From Pirellula staleyi DSM 6068 (GTDB lineage Bacteria; Planctomycetota; Planctomycetia; Pirellulales; Pirellulaceae): a stretch of 32,000 bases of DNA. Position numbers and translations under genes: made by a program. The stretch's first letter is position 1. Every line of letters begins with the position of its first letter. This document shows positions 1,176 to 32,000 of this stretch, in pieces. The stretch lies in assembly GCA_000025185.1 (NCBI GenBank), contig CP001848.1, positions 4,710,001-4,742,000 of the forward strand, given 5' to 3'. The notes below the pieces were generated by a model. That model was not told where the DNA came from, ran no database searches, and saw only the letters and a list, made by a program, of their open reading frames with translations.

Positions 1176-3962
1176 ATGGCAAAACCATCCGGTGTTTGGG
1201 GAATTGATATCGGTCGATGTGCCCTCAAAGCACTCCGCTGCCGTATGGATGGCGATGCGGTGGTGGCCGACGGGTTCGACTATATCGAGTACCCCAAGCT
1301 GCTCACGCAATCCGACGCCGACGCACCTCAGCTGGTGAAAGAGGCTCTCGAGCAGTTCCTCAGCCGCAACAGCTTGCGCGGCGATAAAGTGGCCGTATCG
1401 GTTCCTGGCGAATCGGGCCTTGCGCGGTTCTTCAAGCCACCACCCGTGGATGTGAAGAAGATCGCCGACATCGTGAAGTACGAAGCCCGACAGCAAATCC
1501 CCTTTGCGCTGGAAGACGTGATCTGGGACTACCAGCGGATGCCTGGTGGCCAGGAAGTCGATGGTTTTGCGCTCGATACGGAAATCGGCCTGTTCGCCAT
1601 GAAGCGCGAACAAGTCAGCAAAGCGATGCAGCCGTTTTTGAACGCCGGCATCGAAGTCGACATCATCCAGCTCTCGCCGATCGCTTGCTACAACTACATT
1701 TCCTACGACTCCCCCAAGCGGCTCGCCGACGGGGAAGAATACGACCCTGAAAAGCCCCCGAAATCGGTCGTCGTTCTATCGATCGGCACCGATACGACCG
1801 ACCTGGTGGTGACGAACGGCTACCGCGTTTGGCAGCGTAATATTCCGCTCGGTGGCAATCACTTCACCAAGCAATTGTCGAAAGATCTGAAGCTTACCTT
1901 TGCCAAGGCCGAGCATCTGAAGCGGAACCCGAAGCAAGCGGAAGACCCCAAGGCGGTGTTCCAGGCGATGCGTCCGGTGTTCGGCGACATGGTGACTGAA
2001 ATTCAGCGCTCGCTGAACTTCTTCAGCAGCCTCGATCGCAAAGCGTCGATCGAATCGGTGATGCTCTTGGGAAATACCGTCAAGCTCCCTGGTTTGACGC
2101 AGTACCTCTCCAAACACCTGGGCTACGACGTCAAAGAAATCGACTCGTTCACGCGGCTCACCGGTGCCCAGGTCGTCACGTCCCCGAGCTTCAAAGACAA
2201 CATGCTCGCCTTCGGCGGCTGTTACGGCTTATGCCTCCAAGGTCTTGGCAAGTCGAAGCTGGGGACCAACCTGCTGCCTCGCGAAATCCTCACGCAGCGC
2301 ATGATCAAGGCCAAGAAGCCTTGGGCAGTTGGGGCCGTAGCGACCGTGATCCTCGCCTGCGCGTTCAACTACATCTTCACCTACCGTGTGTGGAATGAAG
2401 TGAACCCCAAGACCACCGTGCAAGGTGTCGCTTGGGAATCGGCCATGACCGAAGCGGGGAATGTCACCAAGACTAGCTCCACGTATATCACGGCCGACAA
2501 AGACAAAGTCGCTAAGTTCGATATGCTCAAGCAAATTGGGCAGGAAGTGGTGGGAGCTGGTGACCGCCGCGTGCTCTGGCTCGAGCTGATGAAAGCCCTC
2601 AACGAGTCGATGCCAAAGATGGCCGACACGCTGCAGCCTGGCGAAATTCCCGACGTTAAAAAACTGCCATTTGATAAACGTAAGGATCTGAAGATCTCGT
2701 ACGTCGAAACGCAGTACTATCCCGAACTGAGTCTCTGGTTCACCAGCGAGGTGAAGAAGAAGTACCTCGAGCTCAACCCTGAGCTCATGACTGCTCCACC
2801 TGCCGGTGCCACCCCGGGCACTCCTGGTATGCCGGGGGCTGTCCCTCCGGTCGCTGCGATGCCAGCCATGCCTCCCGCTATGCCTGGAGCCATGCCGGGT
2901 GCGATGCCGGGAGCCATGCCCGGCATGATGCCAGGAATGATGCCCGGTGGTGGTGTCGATCCTGTCACTGGTTTGCCGATGGCCTCGAGCAGTTCGTCGA
3001 CCGACGTTTCGATGGTGCAGATTCCTGGTCCTAAAGGTCCAGGCTGGGTGGTCGAACTGGCTGGCTATCACTACTACAACGACCCAGCGGATCGTCGTAA
3101 CGCCGGTCCAGCGCATGTGAAGAACACGCTGCTCAAGCAACTCAAAGAGGGCTCGATTGAAGTCCCCGTCGGTGCTGGCGGCATGCTCGATCGTTTCACG
3201 ATGAAAGAGCTCGGAATTGGCTATGCCATCCTGGCTCTCGATCCTAAACCGGTCGATCACCAAATCCCGAACCCCAATTATGTTCCACCGGTAGGCGTCG
3301 GAATGACCGACGGCTTTGGTGGGATGCCAGGGTCGATGCCGATGCCTCCGATGCCAGGTGCCAAGCCACCGGGAGCGAAGGGGGCCACCGATAAACCGGC
3401 GGTCGATCCAGCTGAAAATCCTCCGTTCTTCAAGGTGAGCCGCTACAACTTCATCATCCAGTTCTGCTGGCAAGAAAAGCCGATGAACGTGCGACTCGAA
3501 GAGCGTGCCAAGGCTCAGCTCGAAGCGCAGCAAAAGGCAGCGGAAGCTGCTGCAGCCGCTGCTGCGGGTGGCGTTCCTGGTGCTGTCCCAGGTGTTCCTG
3601 GCACCATGCCGGGCGTCCCAGGTGTGGCACCTACCGTTCCTGGTGTGGCTCCTGTCGCACCACCCGCGATCCCTGCGGCACCTATTCCAGCGGCACCCGT
3701 TCCAGGTGCAGTCGCACCTGCTCCTGGTCTGCCCGCTCCCGCAGCTCCAGCTCCTGGACAAATTGCACCTGCACAAGCAGCTCCTGGACAAGTGGCACCC
3801 GGCCCCGTAGCTCCTGCGCCGGCTGCTCCTGCTCCCGTAGCCCCCGCACCTGCTGCACCTGGCGCGGCTCCAGCCGTTCCAGCGGAACTCACTGGCGACC
3901 TGCCTGTTGAAGCTCCCCCGGCCGCCCCCGCAGCTGCTCCACCTGTCAATCCTGTCCCTTGA
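1176..3962 (+). CDS. PilM-PilN fusion protein: actin-like ATPase domain, INLLP-like motif, TM helix, then a large extracytoplasmic extension with Met-Pro-Gly repeats and an Ala/Pro/Val-rich tail
   Basis: ATG at 1176 lies 7 nt after GAGGA. The N-terminal ~360 aa match PilM signatures (GIDIGRCALKAL; IVKYEARQQIPFALEDVIWDY; VLSIGTDTTDLVV; IPLGGNHFTKQL; AEHLKRN; EIQRSLNFF). GTNLLPREI at nt ~2263-2290 resembles the PilN N-terminal INLLP peptide and is followed by TM helix WAVGAVATVILACAFNYIF. The rest of the protein is not recognised. Confidence 0.8.
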   Translation: MAKPSGVWGIDIGRCALKALRCRMDGDAVVADGFDYIEYPKLLTQSDADAPQLVKEALEQFLSRNSLRGDKVAVSVPGESGLARFFKPPPVDVKKIADIVKYEARQQIPFALEDVIWDYQRMPGGQEVDGFALDTEIGLFAMKREQVSKAMQPFLNAGIEVDIIQLSPIACYNYISYDSPKRLADGEEYDPEKPPKSVVVLSIGTDTTDLVVTNGYRVWQRNIPLGGNHFTKQLSKDLKLTFAKAEHLKRNPKQAEDPKAVFQAMRPVFGDMVTEIQRSLNFFSSLDRKASIESVMLLGNTVKLPGLTQYLSKHLGYDVKEIDSFTRLTGAQVVTSPSFKDNMLAFGGCYGLCLQGLGKSKLGTNLLPREILTQRMIKAKKPWAVGAVATVILACAFNYIFTYRVWNEVNPKTTVQGVAWESAMTEAGNVTKTSSTYITADKDKVAKFDMLKQIGQEVVGAGDRRVLWLELMKALNESMPKMADTLQPGEIPDVKKLPFDKRKDLKISYVETQYYPELSLWFTSEVKKKYLELNPELMTAPPAGATPGTPGMPGAVPPVAAMPAMPPAMPGAMPGAMPGAMPGMMPGMMPGGGVDPVTGLPMASSSSSTDVSMVQIPGPKGPGWVVELAGYHYYNDPADRRNAGPAHVKNTLLKQLKEGSIEVPVGAGGMLDRFTMKELGIGYAILALDPKPVDHQIPNPNYVPPVGVGMTDGFGGMPGSMPMPPMPGAKPPGAKGATDKPAVDPAENPPFFKVSRYNFIIQFCWQEKPMNVRLEERAKAQLEAQQKAAEAAAAAAAGGVPGAVPGVPGTMPGVPGVAPTVPGVAPVAPPAIPAAPIPAAPVPGAVAPAPGLPAPAAPAPGQIAPAQAAPGQVAPGPVAPAPAAPAPVAPAPAAPGAAPAVPAELTGDLPVEAPPAAPAAAPPVNPVP
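2787..2954 (+). repeat. Degenerate Met-Pro-Gly peptide-repeat tract ([56 protein letters not shown]) within CDS 1176..3962
   Basis: Read directly from the sequence. Successive A/M-M-P-G units use different synonymous codons (Pro: cct, ccg, ccc, cca; Gly: gga, ggt, ggc). Confidence 0.9.
3537..3959 (+). repeat. Low-complexity Ala/Pro/Val(Gly) C-terminal tail (~140 aa) of CDS 1176..3962
   Basis: The translation reads [115 protein letters not shown]... The low complexity also leaves other frames and the opposite strand open here. Confidence 0.9.
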
Positions 3963-3987
3963 TCTCCCGTAGGAAAGCTTGCCCAAC

Positions 3988-5931
3988 ATGGACAAACTCA
4001 AAGAACAACTGGCTGTCGTCAAGCAGCACTCGTTCTGGGTGATGTGCGTGGCCATCCTGGGAATCAGTGTGGCCAGCTGGTACGTCTCGACGAACAAACT
4101 TCGCGAAGAGCAAAAAAAGCAGCTGTCGACCATCGAATCGCAGCTCAATTCGCTCAGCTCGTTCGTCACGGCCAATCCACTGCATCCCAACCAGACGACC
4201 AATCAGCGGATGGATGAACTCAGCCGCGCTTACGCCACCAAAGTGGCTGAAGGTTGGGGTCTGCAGTACAAGAATCAAGAGTCGATTCTGGTCTGGCCGA
4301 ACTCGTTCGGTGAAGACTTCACACGGATGGTCGACCCCCTGCGTCCGATCGAAAACCTCCCGTTTCCGACGCCGATTACGCAGGAACTTTCGTCGGACCT
4401 GAAGACGATCTACCGTAACTACGTCGAACTCGAACTTCCCACCCTCGCGACCACGATTGGTGCCGAATGGAAGGCCCAAAGCCTGCCGGGCCAATCGACC
4501 GGCAGCGGCGCTGAAGGGATGATGCCGTCGTTTGGCTCCACACCTGGAATGATGCCTGGTATGAATCCTGGTATGCCAGGACAAACGCAGCTCGGCCCCG
4601 ATGGACTGCCGATTCAAATGGTCGACAAGTCGATCGTGCTGTGGGATCCCGCCAATCAGGCCGAAATCCTCACACGTCACTTCATTTTGACCAGTAAGGT
4701 CGAACTCCCTTCGACGCTCGAAGTGCTCTATGCCCAAGAGGATTTCTGGGTTCTCCAGAACATCATGGACATGATCAAAGCGACGAACGAAGGAGCTGAA
4801 GCTCGCCACGAAGCTGCGATCAAGAAGATCGACTTCATTCGAATCGGTCGTACGGCGATGGGTCTTGCTGGAACGGTTCGCCCGGTCGGTGCTCCTACGA
4901 TGCCAGGCATGACTCCCGGAATGCCCGGCTCGGAAGGTATGCCAGGTGCCATGCCCGGATCGATGCCCGGTGGTTCGCTGCCTGGAGGATTGCCTGGCGC
5001 AATGCCGGGGATGTTGCCTGGCGGTGTTCCACCTGCGACTGGGATGCCTGGCGCGATGCCAGGAGCTATGCCCGGCGCAATGCCGGGGATGTCACCTATG
5101 GCTCCCATGGCTCCCGGCATGGACGGCACCAGTAGCTCGATGCCCGGCATGGGGATGGTCAGTGCCGACCCGGCTGAAGGTCGCTATGTCGACAACAACT
5201 ATCAACCACTTCCTGCTTCGCGATTGCGTGCCGCACTCACTTCCACCAATCCTCAGGATGCGATCTTGGCTGTCGCGAAGCGGATGCCTGTTCGCCTCCG
5301 TTTCCATGTCGATCAACGACGCGTCAACAAGCTGCTGGCACAATGCGGCAACGCCAAGTTGCCTGTAGAAGTGAAGCAAGTTCGCGTGAATCGTACCCCC
5401 GCAGCGCCTGGTGCCATGGGTGGCAACTCGGCTGGTGGCGGTGCCGAAGGTTACATGTCGACCCCCAGCCCTAGCATGGACTACGGCATGGAAGGTGGCA
5501 GCAGCAGCATGATGCCAGGGATGATGCCCGGCATGGAAGGTGGCAGCGGAATGATGCCCGGCGGTATGCCTGGTATTCCGAGCCGCACTGGCAGCCTGAC
5601 TGGCGATGCCACGATCGACCAGAACATCATTCAGATCGAGCTTTACGGCATTGTGTACCTATACAACCCGGTGAACTTGTCGCAACTCGGTTTGCTCGAT
5701 CCGACCGCTCCGAACACTGCCGCACTGCCAACCGGCATGCCAGGTGTCACCGAAGCTGCTGTGGTTCCGGCCCCAGTTGCCCCAGCACCGATTGCTCCTG
5801 TGGCACCTGCTGGCACGGCACCTGTCGCTCCTGTGGCGACGCCACCAGCGGCTGCTCCTGGCGTTCCTTCGGCAGCTGCTCCTGTGGCTCCGATTCCGAC
5901 CACCCCGGTGGCAGCACCGGTGGGGCCGTAG
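3988..5931 (+). CDS. Bitopic membrane protein (N-terminal TM plus coiled coil, PilO-like topology only) with three Met-Pro-Gly repeat tracts and an Ala/Pro/Val tail
   Basis: The ORF track starts at TTG 3979 and the first ATG is at 3988; the true start is uncertain. It lies 17-26 nt after the upstream stop on the same strand. TM helix is [18 protein letters not shown], followed by a heptad-like segment ([20 protein letters not shown]). MPG tracts lie at ~4507-4590, 4894-5157 and ~5500-5580, and the tail at 5749-5928. I recognise no family for the globular parts. Confidence 0.75.
4894..5157 (+). repeat. Longest Met-Pro-Gly repeat tract ([88 protein letters not shown])
   Basis: Read directly from the sequence. 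Repeat units are synonymously diversified at the DNA level. Confidence 0.9.
5749..5928 (+). repeat. Ala/Pro/Val-rich C-terminal tail of CDS 3988..5931
   Basis: The translation reads [60 protein letters not shown]. Its composition matches the tail of the upstream protein. Confidence 0.9.
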
Positions 5932-6077
5932 CTTGGCTGGAAGGGTCCGTACGTTGTTTTGGCGAGAGTGGTTTGTAACAAGTTCTCAGTTACTAATGAC
6001 TTAGCCAACCGAAGATGGAATAATTCAAAGCAGATCGATCGAGGGCTATCGATCAGTTTTTTGGAAAGAGACGTCCC

Positions 6078-8396
6078 ATGAAAAAACCAAAGATCAGCTT
6101 GGACATGTCGAAAATCCAAGGCCTGCTCGTTCAGCACGTCGAAAAGATTGTGCTGTTGGTGGTGGTGCTCGTCGCGTGCTGGTTTGTGTACCAGGGCTAC
6201 TCGATTGAAGGCTTGGCGCAGAACAAAACGCCATCGAGCCTGAAAGAAAGTGCCCAGCGTGCCACTTCGCACATCAATCGCCCCACGGTGTGGGACGAGA
6301 TCGTCAAAACGCGCTCGGTGCCGATGGATGTTCCGGAGAAAGTGACGCAAGGGCACAAACCTGCCGATGCACTTGCGTATCGTCTTCCGAACGCCTGGAA
6401 CCGAAGCGACTTTCCGAAGCTCAGTCGCCGTGTTGATCCAAAGCTCTTTCCGCCGATCAACCTGAAGGTTGTTCCGATGGTCGGCCCGCTGGCATATTAC
6501 GACCCCAATCCACCCCAACCGGGAACGGGGACGGGACTCGCCACATCGACCGACGATCCGCTCGACCTCGCGACTTTGATGGAAGCGGAACTTGCTTCGG
6601 AACCGAGCAAGCCCAAGCCAAAACCTAAGAAGATGGTGATGGATCCAGCCACCGGCATGATGGTGGAAGCTCCCAAGGGTGGACGTAATCCACGTGGCCG
6701 CCAGCCTTATCCAGGCATGGAAGGCTCGGAGATGCTGGCTCCTACAGCCGAGGGCTCGATGCCCGGCGCGATGTACGACCCCAGTGGCTCGGGGATGTAC
6801 GGAACAGGGCAAGCGGCCATGCTGAATCCCGAGAGTGTTCTCGGTTTCCGTCCGCAAGGTCCCACGATTGCGCGGCCCACCCGCTGCGTAACCGTGATGG
6901 CTGTGGTGCCCGTGGAACGACAAATCGAAGAATTCGAAAATGCTTTGGAATCGGGGCTCGACTACGATCCGCTTCGCGATCAGCCGCGCTATTTGCAGTT
7001 CGGTGTCGAACGTGCCGACGTGACGGAAGATCCGTTCATCGATCCTGCGACGGCAAAGTGGGAACCTCTCAAGGTGATCGCTTCACTCGCCGAAAGCGCA
7101 AACTGGGCCGGATACCCTGAAGAAGTGTCCGATCCGAATTACATCGACCCTGCTTACTTCGATCCTAACACCCGTACGGCAGTGAATGTGCTGACGCACC
7201 CAGCGCCACCATTCATGCAGCGTAATTTGTGGGACTTGCTCTATCATCCCGACGTTCCCCTTCCAGCCTTGCAAGTGACCGAACTTGGCCCTGATGGCCG
7301 GCCCATCATGCCAGTTGTTCCCGGTGCTGAAGATCCAGAAATCAGCGAAGACCTCCCGATTGCTCCGATCACAGGTCCCGGAATGCCAGGGATGATGGGT
7401 GGCGAAGGAAGCTACGGCAGTGGTGCTCCGGGGATGATGCCAGGTGGCGGTGGGGGGATGCGTCCACAATCGCGACCCCAGCGTGGTGGCATGATGGGTG
7501 GAGCGCCCGGCATGTACGGCAGTGAAAGTGGCGGCAGTGGCATGTACGGTGCCAGTGGAGTCGCTACCCCCACGATTGCCAAGTATAAATTGCTCCGCTT
7601 CAACGACATGGAAGTGAAGCAAGGGCGTGTCTATCGCTATCGCGTCCGCCTGCTGGTCGAAGACCCGAACCATCCTGCTAATCCACTGGCAGCGCCTAGC
7701 ATCCAGTCGCTTGATGATCCAGTTCGCGAACGAGTGAAAGCGCTCGAAGCTGATGAAGCCAAGCGAGCCGACAAGCGTCGCACGTTCTGGCGTGTCTCGG
7801 ACTGGAGCGAGCCTAGCGAACTTGTAAAACTCCCCGATAGCGAATCGTTCTTTGCCAAGAGCGTGGTGGCACCTCCTTCGTCGGAAGTGGTTCCAGGCAA
7901 GCCTCGCGTTCCGAACAAAGAGCACACAGCCACAACCTTGGCCGTGGTGTGGGACGATGTGAAGCGAGTCGATGTTCCAGCGCCGCTGGAAGTTCTGCGC
8001 GGCAGCACGGTGAACTTCCAAGCCGATGCTCAGGTGATTCACCCCGCACTCGCTTCCGAGCGTAAGCTGACGAAGTATGTCTTCAAGACGCAAGCGGTGG
8101 TTGCCGACATCAGCGGTGGAGAAGTAATTCCGCCACTGCAACGTGCCAATGATAAGCCCCTCAATGCACCGGGCGAGCTGCTGATCTTCGATCGTTTCGG
8201 CAAACTGCAAGTCCGTCACGAAACCGACGATATCGAAGCGATGCGGCGCTACACCATTCCGGAACCACCGAAACCAACCACCACCACCCCTGGTATGGAA
8301 GGTTCGACCGACCCGACCATGTCGGGCTACGACGATCTGATGAATATGGGCCCGGGTGGACGTCCACCACGCCGTCCGCGCGGCTCGCAGCCGTAA
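6078..8396 (+). CDS. Bitopic membrane protein with Met/Gly/Pro(Tyr/Ser) repeat tracts; third gene of the PilM-PilN fusion operon
   Basis: ATG at 6078 is preceded by GGAAAGAG. N-terminal TM helix is IVLLVVVLVACWFVY. Low-complexity tracts lie at ~6706-6822, 7374-7559 (GPGMPGMMGGEGSYGSGAPGMMPGGGGGMRPQSRPQRGGMMGGAPGMYGSESGGSGMYGASG) and ~8280-8393. A beta-sandwich-style motif follows (LLRFNDMEVKQGRVYRYRVRLLVEDP). No family recognised. Confidence 0.75.
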   Translation: MKKPKISLDMSKIQGLLVQHVEKIVLLVVVLVACWFVYQGYSIEGLAQNKTPSSLKESAQRATSHINRPTVWDEIVKTRSVPMDVPEKVTQGHKPADALAYRLPNAWNRSDFPKLSRRVDPKLFPPINLKVVPMVGPLAYYDPNPPQPGTGTGLATSTDDPLDLATLMEAELASEPSKPKPKPKKMVMDPATGMMVEAPKGGRNPRGRQPYPGMEGSEMLAPTAEGSMPGAMYDPSGSGMYGTGQAAMLNPESVLGFRPQGPTIARPTRCVTVMAVVPVERQIEEFENALESGLDYDPLRDQPRYLQFGVERADVTEDPFIDPATAKWEPLKVIASLAESANWAGYPEEVSDPNYIDPAYFDPNTRTAVNVLTHPAPPFMQRNLWDLLYHPDVPLPALQVTELGPDGRPIMPVVPGAEDPEISEDLPIAPITGPGMPGMMGGEGSYGSGAPGMMPGGGGGMRPQSRPQRGGMMGGAPGMYGSESGGSGMYGASGVATPTIAKYKLLRFNDMEVKQGRVYRYRVRLLVEDPNHPANPLAAPSIQSLDDPVRERVKALEADEAKRADKRRTFWRVSDWSEPSELVKLPDSESFFAKSVVAPPSSEVVPGKPRVPNKEHTATTLAVVWDDVKRVDVPAPLEVLRGSTVNFQADAQVIHPALASERKLTKYVFKTQAVVADISGGEVIPPLQRANDKPLNAPGELLIFDRFGKLQVRHETDDIEAMRRYTIPEPPKPTTTTPGMEGSTDPTMSGYDDLMNMGPGGRPPRRPRGSQP
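7374..7559 (+). repeat. Met/Gly/Pro-rich repeat tract within CDS 6078..8396
   Basis: Read directly from the translation. The motif vocabulary (PGMMPG, GMYG) matches that of the two upstream proteins. Confidence 0.85.
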
Positions 8397-8467: not shown

Positions 8468-8517
8468 AAAAAACGCCGCGTCACTCTCTCGGGAATGACG
8501 CGGCGTTTGTTTTTCTT
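8468..8517. terminator. Bidirectional rho-independent terminator between convergent genes
   Basis: A perfect 13-bp stem pairs AAACGCCGCGTCA (8471-8483) with TGACGCGGCGTTT (8496-8508), with a 12-nt loop. It is flanked by an A-run upstream and TTGTTTTTCTT downstream. It lies between the stop at 8396 (+) and the stop at 8628 (-). Confidence 0.75.
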
Positions 8518-8627: not shown

Positions 8628-9161
8628 CTAATACTTTAGCAAGCTAAACGACGAATAAGGGGCGAGGGTCTTCACGCCACCCAGAGCAACCAGTTCGATG
8701 GCAAACGCGCAGCCCACCACCGTGGCACCAGTCCGCTCGATCAGCCGACAGCAGGCGCCCACCGTACCACCGGTGGCCAGCAAATCGTCGACCACCAGCA
8801 CTCGCTGTCCCGACTTCAAACCGTCGACGTGAATTTCCAGCGTGTCGCTTCCGTACTCGAGTTCATAGTGGAACGAGTGCGTATCGAAAGGAAGTTTGCC
8901 GGGCTTACGGACTGGTACGAATGCAGCCCCGAGTTGCACCGCCATCGGCGCGGCGAAAATAAATCCGCGTGCCTCGGCGGCAACGATCGCATCGACTTTG
9001 GAGTCCGCAAAGGGCTCGCACAAACGGCGAATCGATTCCTTGAACGCTGGAGGACTCGCCAGTAGGGGAGTAATGTCGCGGAACAAGATTCCTGGCTTCG
9101 GAAAATCAGGGATGTCGCGAATAAAACTTTTCAGGTCCAAGGCGCTGCCGTCGGTCATCAT
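8628..9161 (-). CDS. apt: Adenine phosphoribosyltransferase
   Basis: Near-textbook Apt signatures are present: [67 protein letters not shown] at 9161 lies 5 nt after GGAG; the track start at 9173 is a TTG. Confidence 0.92.
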
Positions 9162-9329
9162 CGTGCTCCGCAATTACTCAATCAGACGATTCACAGAGGG
9201 AACCAAAGCGATCGACGCATGACGCTGCGACCGGACGCTCCACTTTGCCCGCGAATATAGAGTTCCCCGCGAGCACTTACAAAGGGGAGTCGTCGCGCGA
9301 GCTCGGTGCAGTGCCGGTTTTGAAATGCA

Positions 9330-27850: not shown

Positions 27851-27884
27851 ACCGTTTCGAGGTTTGCGGCTAAGGCGACTACTC

Positions 27885-28520
27885 ATGACGTGCTGGAGTT
27901 CACTCGCGAAGTGCTCTGGTCGTCGGTTACCTTCATCGACCAGCCGCGCGGCGTTTTCGCTCATCGAAGCGATGGTCGCCATGACAATCGTCACCTTCGC
28001 AGCCTCCGTTTTGCTCCTGGGGGTCGAAGCTTCTCTCGGAACATCCACCGAAGCTGTCGACCGGGCCATAGCCGACGGCATTGCCCGGCAAGTGATCGAA
28101 GAGATCGTCAGCAAACGCTACGTGCAGCCCGGCAATAGCCCCGAAACCCTCGCGCTCGGGCCTGGCGGATCGGAAGAGAACGACGAAGACCGCCGCAACT
28201 ACAACGACACCGACGACTTTCATGGCTACGAAACCGACGGGCTGTTCGATACCTGGGGCATCGCCCTCGGTCGGGGAAACGAGGCGGGGGGCCTACGCTA
28301 TTCGACCTTTCGACTCCGAAGCAGCTACTTCACCAACTGGCGGATGAACATTCGGGTCTCGATGGTCAATCCCACGAACCCATCGCTCAACCTCACCGGC
28401 AGCAACACAAGTCGCGTGCGCGCCGCTGAAGTCACCATCAGCTACGAAAACAGCGATGGATCGATCATTCCCCTAGCTAAGCGGAGGCGTGTCTTTGCGT
28501 ACCTTCCTCCGCCTGCTTAA
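27885..28520 (+). CDS. Minor pseudopilin with prepilin-type N-terminal cleavage/methylation domain (GspI/PilV-like size class)
   Basis: The motif ...SRAA/FSLIEAMVAMTIVTFAASVLLLG has the F-x-L-I-E plus hydrophobic helix hallmark. ATG is at 27885; the track start at 27864 is a TTG. The rest of the protein is not recognised. Confidence 0.7.
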   Translation: MTCWSSLAKCSGRRLPSSTSRAAFSLIEAMVAMTIVTFAASVLLLGVEASLGTSTEAVDRAIADGIARQVIEEIVSKRYVQPGNSPETLALGPGGSEENDEDRRNYNDTDDFHGYETDGLFDTWGIALGRGNEAGGLRYSTFRLRSSYFTNWRMNIRVSMVNPTNPSLNLTGSNTSRVRAAEVTISYENSDGSIIPLAKRRRVFAYLPPPA

Positions 28521-29307
28521 TTCACGCAGCTCTCGGCTACGACACCAGCGACAGCGACGCGGGCTAACGCTCGCCGAACTGCTGGTTGCCACCACGGTCC
28601 TGGCACTCATCGCAGCTGCCATGGGGACTGTTTCGCTGGCGGTGCATACCTCGTCGACCTACTGCATGGGTCAGAGCACCACGCTGCAACACGCGCGCGT
28701 GGCGGTCGATCGGATTGAGCAGCACATTCGCTCGAGTCAGCACAGCGAATCGTTTCCCTGCTCAATCGTGATATCACAAACGGTCTCGAGCAGTTCATTT
28801 CCTGATGCGCTGGCGATCTGGAAACCGCTCACCACCGCGCAAGCTCCCACCGGGCTCCCGCGCGTCAGCGAAATGATCTTCATTGCTCCCGATCCAGCGG
28901 AGCCATCGCACTTGTATGAATGGCGTCTAGCCACCAGTAGCGCGACGGTTCCTAGCTACGGTTCCACATCCAGCTGGCGCACACTCCTTAGCACAGTTCG
29001 CAGCCACAGCGATACCGAAAAAGTGCTGCTGACCGATCGCTTATTCACCGCCATGGCATCGAGCACCACGCGACTCGGCTCAATTCGCTTCTACGTAGCC
29101 CATGCTCCCTCGCGAAATGAACTGACGAACTATCGCAATGGAATTACCTCTTGGAGGGCTTTGCAGTGGCCGCTCGACTTGTATGGAACCGAAATGGGGC
29201 TGCAACTCACCCGTGTGAATTTCGAACTTCAACTCGATCCGGGTGACGGCAGTGAAGTGATTCCGTTCTTCGGAGCTGCAGCGCGGAAAGGAGCGGTCTA
29301 CCGATGA
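28489..29307 (+). CDS. Minor pseudopilin with prepilin-type N-terminal domain (GspJ/PilW-like size class)
   Basis: The motif RRG/LTLAELLVATTVLALIAAAMG is present. The gene overlaps the upstream gene. Start is GTG 28489 or TTG 28495, the latter 7 nt after GGAGG. Confidence 0.7.
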   Translation: MSLRTFLRLLNSRSSRLRHQRQRRGLTLAELLVATTVLALIAAAMGTVSLAVHTSSTYCMGQSTTLQHARVAVDRIEQHIRSSQHSESFPCSIVISQTVSSSSFPDALAIWKPLTTAQAPTGLPRVSEMIFIAPDPAEPSHLYEWRLATSSATVPSYGSTSSWRTLLSTVRSHSDTEKVLLTDRLFTAMASSTTRLGSIRFYVAHAPSRNELTNYRNGITSWRALQWPLDLYGTEMGLQLTRVNFELQLDPGDGSEVIPFFGAAARKGAVYR

Positions 29308-30857
29308 TCCGCCGCTCGAGCATGCTGAAAAAATCGCCCCCTAAGCGTCGCACGCCTCATCGAAGGGGGATGGCAGTGGTCGTGGTGCTCGGACTGCTCG
29401 CCATCACACTCGCGCTTTCGTACTCCATGATGCGCGCTCAGTCGATGACACTTCTGGTGGAGAGAAATGTCAGCCGCAACACGCTCGCAGAAGATGCTGC
29501 CGATGCCGCGCTCAGCCTAGCAATTGCCCGCATCCACGAGAGCAGTTGGCAAGGTGTCGACGTCCCTTTGCGAGGCGATCTCGGGAACCACTGCAGTTAT
29601 GAAGTGACGTTCACCACGGGCGATTCGTTGCTGATAGCATCATCACCCAACTACAGCGATTTTCCTTACCGACTAACGATCACCGCCATCGGAAAGGCGG
29701 CTGATCCCCGCGATGCGCAAATCGAAGTGCGCCGCACAAGAACAGCTGTCCTTTCGCTCCGTCGTCGCGCCATCGCTTCGGCCCCGAGCAATTGGTCACT
29801 CGTTCAAAATCACTCCATTTTTCAGTGGGGGACCGGCACTAGTTCGATTCATGTTCCCTTTGAGTCGAAAGGTAACACCTGTTTTTTGGGTCAGCTGCGG
29901 ATCTGCCCGTCGTACCCGAGCACGACCTCTTCGCGACAACGCTATCTCTACGATCTCAACCAGATGCGTTTGGCAGGTTTGCCCGACTATCGACCGCTTC
30001 AATCGACAGTTCGGCTCACGTCGCGAACGACAAGCGATAATCGCGCGCTCGTGGAATCGCAGCTCGGTCTTTCCACCATCACCGATACCACCACCTCGAC
30101 TAGTTCGCCGGTGTCGCTCCCCTCGAGCGTGTCGACCTATCGCCTCTATGCCGGCGGCAAGAGCTACACCATCCCGACGATTCAATCCCTCTACGGCAGC
30201 ACCATCTCGGGACGAACACTCGAAGCCGATGTCGCCACCAATCCCCTCGGCGTGTTTCGGAGCAGTGGCTACCTCGGCCTCTCGAACAATGTCACGATTC
30301 GTGGGACCGTGATCTCCACCGGCACGAGCGACGACCTGGCCATTGTTGGGACGAACGTGGAGCTTGCGCCGCCGAAATTGCCTCGGCTTGAAAACGACAC
30401 CAGCGACCGCAAGCTAGCAGCGGCTCTGGTTCGCGATGACCTGGTGATCTACAGCGGCAGTCAGTCGACCGTGCGTGGGCTGGCAATGGTGTGGGACGAT
30501 TTTGATTTGAAAGGGGCCAACTCGACCTCGCGATTCCAGCTCGAGGGACATCTGGCCGCCTCGACCGTCCAGTTTGGAGGGCGCGCCGATTGGCTCTTGA
30601 GTAGCACCTTGTGGTCGATCTACCAAACACTCTTCAATCTGCAAAACACGTCCCCACCTGGTCCTACGACGATCCCCTATTTCCCCGCTTATCTGGAAGC
30701 TGCCATCGGAATGACGGTAGAACCGACCTTGACCGTCGAGCCAAATTCCGATGGAGTACTCGATCATTGGCACGATTTTTCGCAGCCGCTTTTCGTACCA
30801 GCATCGGGCGATAGTGGTCTGCTTTGGAACTTGGTGCGAATCGAAGACGGTCGCTAA
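29304..30857 (+). CDS. Large GspK/PilX-like pseudopilin-family protein
   Basis: Its ATG overlaps the upstream stop in an ATGA junction at 29304-29307. The basic N-terminus is followed by the hydrophobic helix RRGMAVVVVLGLLAITLALSYSMM, with no Glu at +5, as in GspK/PilX-type proteins. At 517 aa, no other family is recognised. Confidence 0.6.
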   Translation: MIRRSSMLKKSPPKRRTPHRRGMAVVVVLGLLAITLALSYSMMRAQSMTLLVERNVSRNTLAEDAADAALSLAIARIHESSWQGVDVPLRGDLGNHCSYEVTFTTGDSLLIASSPNYSDFPYRLTITAIGKAADPRDAQIEVRRTRTAVLSLRRRAIASAPSNWSLVQNHSIFQWGTGTSSIHVPFESKGNTCFLGQLRICPSYPSTTSSRQRYLYDLNQMRLAGLPDYRPLQSTVRLTSRTTSDNRALVESQLGLSTITDTTTSTSSPVSLPSSVSTYRLYAGGKSYTIPTIQSLYGSTISGRTLEADVATNPLGVFRSSGYLGLSNNVTIRGTVISTGTSDDLAIVGTNVELAPPKLPRLENDTSDRKLAAALVRDDLVIYSGSQSTVRGLAMVWDDFDLKGANSTSRFQLEGHLAASTVQFGGRADWLLSSTLWSIYQTLFNLQNTSPPGPTTIPYFPAYLEAAIGMTVEPTLTVEPNSDGVLDHWHDFSQPLFVPASGDSGLLWNLVRIEDGR

Positions 30858-30912
30858 CGTATCGATCGTAGGGATTGCACCCGCGAACACCCCGCCCCCG
30901 AGGAATAAAACC

Positions 30913-31164
30913 ATGCTGCGTCAACCTTCTCTCGCGTCAACCGGCTGGACGATCACGGCGCTTTCGCTGATTTGCGTGCTAGGTTTCTACAGCCTGGGAA
31001 CTGCCGCCCCCGCAGGAGGACAACCTCCGTTTGCGAATTCGGTGGAGCAGCGGGCCGAAATGGTGACCGAACTGCGCGAGATCAAAGAACTCCTGAAGGA
31101 GCAAAATGCGATCTTGCGACAGATGAGTAAAACCGATGCGAGCGCCAAGCCTGCAGCACGATAA
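30913..31164 (+). CDS. Small secreted protein with signal peptide and a short coiled-coil segment
   Basis: ATG at 30913 follows GAGGAATAAAACC. The signal-like N-terminus is MLRQPSLASTGWTITALSLICVLGFYSLGTAAP, followed by an amphipathic helix (EQRAEMVTELREIKELLKEQNAILRQM). The longer track ORF from 30751 lacks support. Confidence 0.5.
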   Translation: MLRQPSLASTGWTITALSLICVLGFYSLGTAAPAGGQPPFANSVEQRAEMVTELREIKELLKEQNAILRQMSKTDASAKPAAR

Positions 31165-31786
31165 GCCTTGTTCACTGCTGTTTCGCAGTGCACCCGCTCG
31201 TGCGCGCGGCATCTCGCTCATCGAAGTGCTGCTGGTTCTGGCCATTTTGGGAGTCGCCGCCGGACTTCTGATTCCCAATCTCTCGGCCGACATTCCCACG
31301 AAGCTAGAAGCCGCTGGAAATGTCGTGCAACTTGAGCTGGAGTATGCCCGCTCTCTCGCCGTCGCGCATGGAAGTAGCTACCGAGTTACGGCCAATGTCG
31401 TCAGCCAAACGCTAACGCTCGAACATAGTGGCGCGAGCACGCTGCTCGAAGTGCTCCCCTCCACACCAATGCGCCGCAGCAGCGATCCACCCGATCAGCA
31501 GATCCTAGCGATTCGCGAGATTCCTTTGGGGCAACCTCGCCCTGAATTGCTGGGAGGTGTCTCCAGCGGCAACACGCCCGTGCTTGCTCCGTCGGTCGAA
31601 TTTACCTCCGTCGGCAGCACCACAGCAGCGAGTCCGACTACGTTTTGGATTGCTGCGGGAACCGGAGACGAGCGACGCTTTCTACCGATCACCGTACAGC
31701 CGATCACGGGACTTGTGGAAATGGGGGAGGTTGTCGCCGCACTTCCGTCCGCTATTGCCAATGCTCTCAGTGATGCCGAGCCTTAG
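31136..31786 (+). CDS. GspH/FimT-like minor pseudopilin
   Basis: The prepilin-type N-terminus is ARG/ISLIEVLLVLAILGVAAGLLIPNL, followed by a GspH-style segment (LEAAGNVVQLELEYARSLAV). It overlaps the previous ORF by 29 nt. Confidence 0.65.
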   Translation: MRAPSLQHDKPCSLLFRSAPARARGISLIEVLLVLAILGVAAGLLIPNLSADIPTKLEAAGNVVQLELEYARSLAVAHGSSYRVTANVVSQTLTLEHSGASTLLEVLPSTPMRRSSDPPDQQILAIREIPLGQPRPELLGGVSSGNTPVLAPSVEFTSVGSTTAASPTTFWIAAGTGDERRFLPITVQPITGLVEMGEVVAALPSAIANALSDAEP

Positions 31787-31853: not shown

Positions 31854-32000
31854 ATGATCAGCTGGCTTAATAACCGACGCTATGGACCGATCGGAATCGA
31901 TCTCGGGTCGCGTAGCGTAAAGCTCGTTCAGCTGTCGGCCGATCGCTCAAATCTGATCGATGCATCGCGATGGGATCTTCCCGCGCAGTCCACCGCTGAT
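31854..32000 (+). CDS. pilM: Type IV pilus assembly protein PilM, N-terminal fragment (continues beyond the window)
   Basis: ATG at 31854 opens an uninterrupted frame to the window end: MISWLNNRRYGPIGIDLGSRSVKLVQLSADRSNLIDASRWDLP. It carries the canonical PilM N-terminal phosphate-1 motif (IGIDLGSRSVKLVQL). This ORF is absent from the ORF track because it has no stop inside the window. Confidence 0.75.
   Translation, partial: MISWLNNRRYGPIGIDLGSRSVKLVQLSADRSNLIDASRWDLPAQSTAD

Follow-up and report, generated by a model that had tools for sequence, protein, structure and literature searches.

Akkermansia carries a pili-like gene cluster, Amuc_1098-1102, which includes a secretin with tetratricopeptide repeats (TPR), the PilM-like Amuc_1101 and Amuc_1100 (PMC5332112, PMC4960237, PMC13174399). 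Amuc_1098 has the architecture of a TPR region plus a secretin (PMC4960237), and Amuc_1100 and Amuc_1101 are called pili-like, with the pilin-like Amuc_1102 beside them (PMC13174399). Here we analyze a stretch of 32,000 nucleotides (nt) of the Pirellula staleyi DSM 6068 genome (CP001848.1, positions 4,710,001 to 4,742,000; "the window"), in which three consecutive genes, referred to as genes 1, 2 and 3, are probably a distant counterpart of this cluster. [quoted passage not shown] The product of gene 3 is 100% identical to Psta_3612, and a literature search found no mention of Psta_3610, Psta_3611 or Psta_3612.

Akkermansia and P. staleyi both belong to the PVC superphylum. Both clusters encode a PilM-like protein with a transmembrane (TM) helix and a periplasmic extension. 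In both the next gene encodes an Amuc_1100-like bitopic protein and is followed, by position, by one further uncharacterized gene. In relatives of P. staleyi, a secretin with a long helical, TPR-like N-terminal extension then follows the trio. The planctomycete proteins exceed those of Akkermansia 2-3 times in length and differ from them by Gly/Met/Pro-rich loops and Ala/Pro (AP) tails, and their scores lie far below the equivalog cutoffs, which speaks for remote homology. The secretin gene of P. staleyi is not adjacent, and gene 3 has no NCBIfam match. No Amuc_1102-like pilin gene lies upstream in P. staleyi, where a 700-nt gap is poor in open reading frames (ORFs).

Two better-known machines offer further points of comparison. 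In the system for type II secretion (T2SS), GspL is one protein that has an actin-like domain in the cytoplasm, a domain in the periplasm and a TM helix; GspM is a homologue of PilO, and GspC is a bitopic link from the platform to the secretin. Gene 1 shares the one-protein layout of GspL, and the secretin linked to the trio in relatives scores on both GspD and PilQ models. Unlike in the T2SS, the cytoplasmic domain is of the PilM type and not of the GspL type, the operon lacks gspE, gspF and pseudopilin genes, and gene 3 shows no detectable GspC homology region (HR) or PDZ domain. With the PilM-PilN-PilO-PilP/PilQ system of the type IVa pilus (T4aP) of P. aeruginosa and M. xanthus (PDB 3jc8), the locus has in common a PilM domain above the TIGR01175 cutoff, a TM helix behind an INLLP-type peptide, a weak fold match of gene 2 to PilO and, in relatives, the gene order M-N-O-X-Q. 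It differs from T4aP in that one fused protein takes the place of PilM and PilN, no match is found by the Pfam models for PilN, PilO or PilP, gene 3 encodes a 772-amino-acid (aa) bitopic protein instead of a lipoprotein of ~170 aa, the linked secretin is about twice the usual size, and the periplasmic domains contain long disordered loops. An initial annotation of the locus had proposed an undescribed machine. This is not supported, since the tail of gene 1 and gene 2 appear to be remote homologues of the Amuc_1101 and Amuc_1100 families. The trio is a divergent variant of the PilMNOP(Q) and Amuc_1098-1101 systems and is not categorically new. Its distinguishing features are the fused PilMN, an orphan third component, conserved Gly/Met/Pro-rich loops and, in relatives, a giant secretin.

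Results

Gene 1 joins a PilM domain to a PilN-like membrane anchor

The N-terminal part of the gene 1 product matches PF11104 (PilM_2) over the full profile with an E value of 1.4e-31 and 110 bits against a cutoff of 27, and TIGR01175 with 145.1 bits, above the curated cutoff of 133. In the PDB, PilM of M. xanthus ranks first (3jc8_Ma, E 1.3e-26), followed by Thermus 2ych and by 5eou; the organisms behind the best solved relatives, all T4aP PilM proteins, are Myxococcus, Thermus and Pseudomonas. Pfam additionally reports FtsA, at an E value of 8e-9. The peptide TNLLPRE ahead of the TM helix resembles INLLP, the N-terminal signature of PilN. In an alignment of 103 homologues, TNLLPREI and KPWAVA are kept in at least 60%, and so is the TM helix behind the peptide. 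Because the PilM domain leads directly into TNLLPREI, then into basic residues and the TM helix, gene 1 is read as a true PilM-PilN fusion, as had been proposed for it together with the PilM domain itself. No Pfam PilN family matches gene 1 at E values up to 1, and no periplasmic PilN domain was found by this measure.

Among NCBIfam models, gene 1 matches the Amuc_1101 family (Amuc_1101_fam, NF045709) best, with an E value of 1.4e-56 and 192.6 bits (aa 47-480 on profile positions 47-462 of 608). The segment behind the PilM domain (aa 357-480) was searched on its own and matched only this family, at profile positions 351-462 (E 1.5e-5). Gene 1 is thus predicted to be a remote homologue of the Amuc_1101 family and not an equivalog. 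At its C terminus lies a tail of 128 aa, against a median of 14 aa among homologues, which makes it largely a feature of P. staleyi.

Gene 2 resembles Amuc_1100, PilO and GspM

Gene 2 gave a set of signals that are each weak alone and jointly specific. Amuc_1100_fam (NF038287) matches aa 431-477 at profile positions 205-253 (E 0.015). It is the sole match of the whole protein, of the core after excision of the loops (E 0.0046) and of a distant homologue (L001, E 0.0095). The same family is matched by 49 of 70 members of the gene 2 family at E values up to 0.1, the best being 4.3e-7; GspG with 4 and GspM with 3 matching members come after it. Neither PilO nor any other Pfam family matches gene 2 or its 70-member family. 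A PDB sequence search with the single sequence and with a profile alignment returned nothing meaningful; the single-sequence matches, for example to an ARID protein, were rejected as compositional matches to the Met-Pro-Gly (MPG) tracts.

The AlphaFold2 (AF2) model of gene 2 has a mean predicted local distance difference test (pLDDT) score of 70.6, above 90 in the core, and a predicted template modeling (pTM) score of 0.64. Besides a TM helix it contains a long helix and a core of the beta-alpha-beta kind. A Foldseek search of the PDB with this model returned 12 entries, of which 10 are Amuc_1100 chains, one is M. xanthus PilO (3jc8_Oa) and one is unrelated (E 6.7). Because the NCBIfam matches, the family-wide matches and the fold neighbors agree, gene 2 is tentatively assigned to the Amuc_1100/PilO/GspM type. 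Its relation to the Amuc_1100 family itself would be one of remote homology only.

The trio is a conserved unit and is linked to a giant secretin in relatives

With the gene 2 profile 80 genome loci were gathered, and further loci were obtained from protein look-ups. All gathered loci are from Planctomycetota, mostly metagenome-assembled genomes of Pirellulaceae, in addition to Anatilimnocola and Blastopirellula marina. All 61 complete loci (61/61) have the order gene 1-gene 2-gene 3 on one strand, and the incomplete ones are cut by contig ends. There is no true exception among 83 loci; two apparent ones, L033 and L045, are artefacts of an N-run and of the ORF-overlap filter. The proposal that the three genes form a conserved unit is thus upheld. 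The median gap between genes 1 and 2 among relatives is 12 nt.

Downstream genes were called in 67 loci, and 26 of these have a giant secretin gene 3′ of gene 3, in the same orientation and among the three called genes that come next. In 16 of the 26 nothing was called between it and the trio, while in most others it takes second or third place; a secretin is also found downstream in L084 and L086. Constant adjacency of such trios to pilQ, pilB and pilC, together with confident domain matches, had been named by the initial annotation as the mark of an elaborated pilus alignment complex, and this is borne out in part, by the secretin adjacency in these loci. The linked secretin has 1,200-1,500 aa. 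Its C-terminal part matches PF00263 (E 4.6e-24) and scores 87.8 bits on the GspD model and 88 bits on the PilQ model. STN and Secretin_N give weak signals, and the N-terminal region of 650-850 aa is helical with weak TPR/Sel1 matches. Behind the secretin gene there usually come genes for a DUF423 membrane protein of small size and for a divergent extracytoplasmic function sigma factor.

The most divergent relatives (L001, L075, L078, L081, L084 and L086) keep the secretin linkage. The closest relatives lack it, and in L087, at 64% identity, the downstream genes are apt-lplA-HEAT as in the window. A parsimonious reading would be an ancestral four-gene operon whose secretin adjacency was lost in the Pirellula/Anatilimnocola clade. 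No pilin, PilB-type ATPase or PilC platform protein was found in the inspected loci up to a distance of 10 kb from the trio. In a distant lineage (GCA_947453375.1), the trio of L002 and L003 is followed by a gene for a 492-aa protein with no family match (L002:11496-12974) and by no secretin; this protein may be an alternative fourth component. In the closer relatives L062 and L008, a same-strand gene for a protein of 1,469-1,675 aa with no match to secretin hidden Markov models follows gene 3.

On the other side, upstream of the trio, 48 of 70 loci have a divergent GH57/GH38N-like gene for a protein of ~920-1,045 aa, and cmk and plsC come after it. It sits among housekeeping genes (cmk, plsC, rpsA), and the one representative that was read has no evident signal peptide. 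The GH57/GH38N-like gene is not found upstream of the trio in P. staleyi. Here a TPR protein gene (86-478) takes its place, which indicates a rearrangement at that edge too. The ~700 nt directly 5′ of gene 1 (479-1175) hold no convincing ORF.

Gene 3 belongs to a large orphan family

In the AF2 model of gene 3 (pLDDT 76.8, pTM 0.68), a TM helix and a further helical segment are seen along with an alpha/beta domain broken by a 100-aa loop, a 90-aa loop and a beta-rich C-terminal domain, in which aa 504-714 have pLDDT values above 90. No consistent Pfam or NCBIfam match was obtained among 60 family members, and a PDB profile search with the alignment gave no match. Foldseek against the PDB returned generic beta-sandwich noise, and these hits were discarded. 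A PilP/GspC beta-sandwich (HR) domain was recognized neither by sequence nor by fold, and no PDZ domain was detected. With an E value limit of 1e-3, a profile search recovered 4,409 cluster representatives (clusters at 50% identity); with a limit of 1e-30 it still recovered 1,821. Gene 3 thus appears to be a new orphan component with a large family.

Met-Pro-Gly tracts appear to be loops at fixed positions

All three proteins had been credited with a shared repeat vocabulary. This is correct as to composition, but not every word is common to all: PGMMPG occurs in the three proteins, PGAMPG is found three times in gene 1, five times in gene 2 and not in gene 3, and GMYG is confined to gene 3 (3 copies). 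Defined as Met-containing windows with at least 55% Met, Pro and Gly, MPG windows are present in 60% of gene 2 homologues, 58% of gene 3 homologues and 25% of gene 1 homologues, against 10% of the associated secretins and 1% (2/359) of other neighboring proteins. The tracts are far beyond chance and family-specific. The ordered parts of the proteins hold only 12-15% of these three residues. In the loops Gly makes up 23-43%, Pro 7-13% and Met 6-11%.

Each of the 70 homologues of gene 2 has the loops at matching places, with lengths of 37-91 aa and 33-103 aa, and those of gene 3 are likewise fixed in position in all homologues. Tandem repeats of 12 and 24 nt in the tract DNA of P. staleyi (gene 1: 2864-2947) suggest local expansion. 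In the AF2 models of genes 2 and 3 the tracts have low confidence and form loops that connect strands and helices within confidently predicted domains, and in gene 2 the elements flanking each tract may be read as one discontinuous fold. If they form such a fold, the tracts are inserted loops rather than serial linkers. The tracts thus appear to be disordered loops within folded domains, and the C-terminal AP tails would be the sole free extensions. Serial linkers across a wide periplasm were rejected on this predicted topology.

Gene boundaries and the rest of the window

The gene layout agrees with the initial annotation in its main points: three co-directional ORFs of 928, 647 (or 650) and 772 aa, a 146-nt gap between genes 2 and 3, one TM helix per protein (a single stretch above the Kyte-Doolittle threshold by which TM helices were called), AP/VP tails in genes 1 and 2, and a strong terminator that closes the operon. 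The gene 2 ORF opens at TTG 3979 (3979-5931, 650 aa). The consensus of its homologues begins with MDxLK, in which M4 and D5 are near-invariant. Because the alignments begin at this motif, ATG 3988 is most likely the start, which would give 647 aa and a gap of 25 nt to gene 1. The terminator hairpin (8471-8508) has 16 bp, 9 of them GC, with a T-run on both strands.

In the spacer between genes 2 and 3, the hairpin at 6033-6064 was tried as an internal terminator and rejected: it is not conserved in the closest relative, L087, and its folding z of -1.3 is unexceptional. An 11-nt block of this spacer, GTAACAAGTTC, is identical in that relative (L087 9775-10000) and may be a regulatory site; internal regulation within the spacer is unproven.

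No secretin, pilB, pilC or pilin gene was found within ~19 kb of the trio in the window, in line with the earlier observation that none is adjacent. A second type IV filament locus occupies 27864-31786 and 31854-32000. Pseudopilin genes with N_methyl motifs precede a pilM-like gene there, as the initial annotation had it, in the order of T2SS genes.

The remaining genes include one for a 207-aa protein with a C-terminal TNT (tuberculosis-necrotizing-toxin, NAD+ glycohydrolase) domain (E 1e-23), directly 3′ of a 541-aa ORF with no family match (18427-20728); the two may form a polymorphic toxin module. On the reverse strand, at 21274-26477, a gene for a 1,293-aa SMC/AAA_27-type ATPase adjoins one for a 428-aa calcineurin-like phosphoesterase, a pair that looks SbcCD-like or defence-like. 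The coordinates of the features are listed in Table 1.

Table 1. Features of the trio and its surroundings (window positions unless a locus handle is given).
Feature	Position	Strand	Extent	Description or basis
Gene 1	1176-3962	+	928 aa	Putative PilM-PilN fusion, Amuc_1101 type; ORF call
PilM domain, gene 1	1200-2240	+	aa 9-355	Cytoplasmic, actin-like; PF11104, TIGR01175 and PDB matches
TNLLPRE peptide, basic stretch, TM helix, gene 1	2265-2384	+	aa 364-370 (peptide), aa ~382-403 (helix)	Read from sequence
Conserved periplasmic block 1, gene 1	2385-2795	+	aa ~404-540	Homologue conservation
Met-Pro-Gly/Ala loop, gene 1	2796-3020	+	aa 541-615	Alignment occupancy 0.33-0.49
Conserved periplasmic block 2, gene 1	3021-3575	+	aa 616-800	Interrupted by short G/M/P loop, aa 701-740
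Ala/Pro/Val-rich C-terminal tail, gene 1	3576-3959	+	aa 801-928	128 aa
Gene 2	3988-5931	+	647 aa from ATG 3988	Bitopic Amuc_1100/PilO/GspM-like protein
TM helix, gene 2	4030-4092	+	aa ~18-38 (650-aa numbering)	Hydrophobicity, AF2 model
MPG loop, gene 2	4489-4587	+	aa 171-203	pLDDT <50
Largest disordered MPG loop, gene 2	4885-5157	+	aa 303-393	pLDDT <50, >90 around
Alpha/beta core, gene 2	5158-5724	+	aa 394-478 and 540-582	Amuc_1100-like signal; split by loop
MPG loop, gene 2	5413-5595	+	aa 479-539	pLDDT <50
AP tail, gene 2	5725-5928	+	aa 583-650	
Spacer, genes 2-3	5932-6077	+	146 nt	Weak hairpin and T-run 6033-6064; promoter-like site 5996-6024
Gene 3	6078-8396	+	772 aa	Bitopic orphan-family protein in PilP/GspC position
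TM helix, gene 3	6138-6203	+	about aa 21-42 (aa ~24-40 by hydrophobicity)	Hydrophobicity, AF2 model
Disordered G/P/M loop 1, gene 3	6513-6812	+	aa 146-245	Inside N-terminal alpha/beta domain
Disordered G/M/P/Y loop 2, gene 3	7293-7562	+	aa 406-495	Contains GMYG
Beta-rich C-terminal domain, gene 3	7563-8291	+	aa 496-738	pLDDT >90
Bidirectional intrinsic terminator	8471-8517	both		Shared with convergent apt
apt	8628-9173	-		Convergent to the trio
ORFs with prepilin N-methylation motifs	27864-28520, 28489-29307, 31136-31786			
Unannotated ORF among pseudopilin genes	29304-30857		517 aa	
pilM-like gene start	31854-32000			MISWLNNRRYGPIGIDLGSRSVKL; runs off window end
Giant secretin genes of relatives	L081:14061-17699; L084:12671-16900; L086:12416-16033			Also in 23 other loci

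Discussion

In the machine that we favor, the PilM domain of gene 1 would form a ring that docks the assembly ATPase and the platform protein, and would clamp the TNLLPRE peptide ahead of the TM helix, either its own or that of a neighbor. The periplasmic part of gene 1 would pair with gene 2, the bitopic partner of the PilO/GspM/Amuc_1100 kind, and gene 3 may link the platform to the N-terminal domains of the giant secretin, whose gene in P. staleyi would lie elsewhere in the genome. Gly/Met/Pro-rich loops would project from the folded periplasmic domains, while the Ala/Pro tails would extend freely. The domain identities of genes 1 and 2, the synteny, the linkage to a secretin in relatives and the conservation of the loops are shown by the data, whereas how the proteins touch one another, what gene 3 does and that the machine makes a pilus are inferred. 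Of the two hypotheses put forward initially, the better is that of an alignment complex for a pilus or for secretion, and it stands in this form; its stretching by disordered linkers is not supported, as the AF2 models place the loops inside folds with no lengthening in series.

Several findings weigh against a filament machine. Gene 1 reaches 192 bits on Amuc_1101_fam, far under the curated equivalog cutoff of 650, and gene 2 reaches 14.8-16.4 bits on Amuc_1100_fam, far under its cutoff of 180. The Foldseek E values of gene 2 are weak (0.26-4; PilO 3jc8_Oa at 1.5). Comparison of the gene 1 tail, gene 2 and parts of gene 3 with one another by hhalign yielded no significant match (the best had an E value of 0.006 at 6% probability), and so no paralogy of the PilN/PilO type between the gene 1 tail and gene 2 was found by this method. 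Gene 3 has no detectable similarity to PilP, GspC or any family, and position and topology alone point to its connector role. Filament genes are lacking near the trio: the ~19-kb vicinity described above contains no secretin, pilB, pilC or pilin gene, nor is a PilT gene linked to the trio within the window. A second pilM, more canonical-looking, starts at 31854 after pseudopilin genes, and because of it the filament served by the trio is left unassigned.

The same parts could also be arranged into other machines. Together with its secretin the trio might be a T2SS-like or exopolymer "nozzle" that exports protein or polysaccharide, such as holdfast or slime, instead of a pilus. T2SS-type secretins are reported to serve as slime nozzles in cyanobacteria and myxobacteria (PMC12475490). 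The equal scores of the linked secretin on the GspD and PilQ models would suit such a nozzle, as would the GspL architecture of a PilM-like and PilN-like fusion, the GspC topology of the bitopic third protein, and the few gene 2 homologues that match GspM and GspG models. Against it, the cytoplasmic domain passes the T4aP PilM cutoff of TIGR01175 and is not GspL, the closest characterized relatives, Amuc_1100 and Amuc_1101, are pili-like with a pilin-like Amuc_1102 (PMC13174399), and a T2SS-like order of pseudopilin genes and pilM is already present at 27.8-32 kb of the window. An export nozzle is thus improbable in our view. The second initial hypothesis, a PilM/FtsA-like, ATPase-driven organizer of membrane or cell wall unrelated to pili or secretins, could appeal to the FtsA match of gene 1 and to the absence of an adjacent pilus gene in the window. 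To our knowledge Planctomycetes lack FtsZ, which is a further point for it. PilM models outscore FtsA and MreB by far, however, the PilN motif is present, gene 2 is Amuc_1100/PilO-like, and many relatives have a secretin gene in direct linkage. The organizer hypothesis found no support and is highly improbable.

A further proposal refines the filament machine and does not compete with it. In this proposal the crateriform structure of planctomycetes has the machine as the core that spans the envelope. The machine would capture polysaccharides by means of fibers and import them into the periplasm, as the planctomycete counterpart of Akkermansia MUL2. Crateriform structures are press-stud-like connections of the outer and cytoplasmic membranes, of unknown composition, and number ~104 per cell with 12-nm dextran-binding fibers (PMC5394234; PMC12673574). 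They are thus envelope-spanning and fiber-bearing, as the proposal would have it. Two papers, citing Davey 2023, report that mucin accumulation in internal compartments of Akkermansia depends on the mul genes, among them the homologous locus Amuc_1099-1102 (MUL2) (PMC12418764, PMC13174399). The family is also very large, as seen from the number of gene 3 cluster representatives, and the secretin is unusually large. The support is purely analogical, and the GH57/GH38-like gene upstream of the trio in relatives was rejected as evidence for glycan uptake, being weak support at best: it has no evident signal peptide in the one representative read, a housekeeping setting and no counterpart at this position in P. 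staleyi. By analogy, then, the crateriform proposal is conceivable though doubtful. Its fullest form, in which the PilMN fusion, the Amuc_1100-like protein, gene 3 and the TPR-like secretin would make up the crateriform core and a PVC-wide, pilus-based importer of macromolecular glycans into the periplasm, equivalent to MUL2 in evolution and function, with the loops as a cohesive periplasmic meshwork around the conduit, must be regarded as unlikely.

Databases label gene 1 as "PilM" and genes 2 and 3 as "hypothetical". Here all three are tied to a secretin-linked machine, and through their probable remote homology to Amuc_1100 and Amuc_1101 (MUL2), on which mucin uptake reportedly depends. The conserved Gly/Met/Pro-rich loops at fixed periplasmic positions are an unusual feature whose function is unexplained. 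The link to the Amuc proteins provides a candidate gene set for the makeup of crateriform structures and their fibers. It may likewise serve as a candidate set for the passage of macromolecules across the outer membrane, whose players are still unknown according to a 2025 review. A connection of the locus to crateriform structures and uptake, if demonstrated, would raise its importance greatly.

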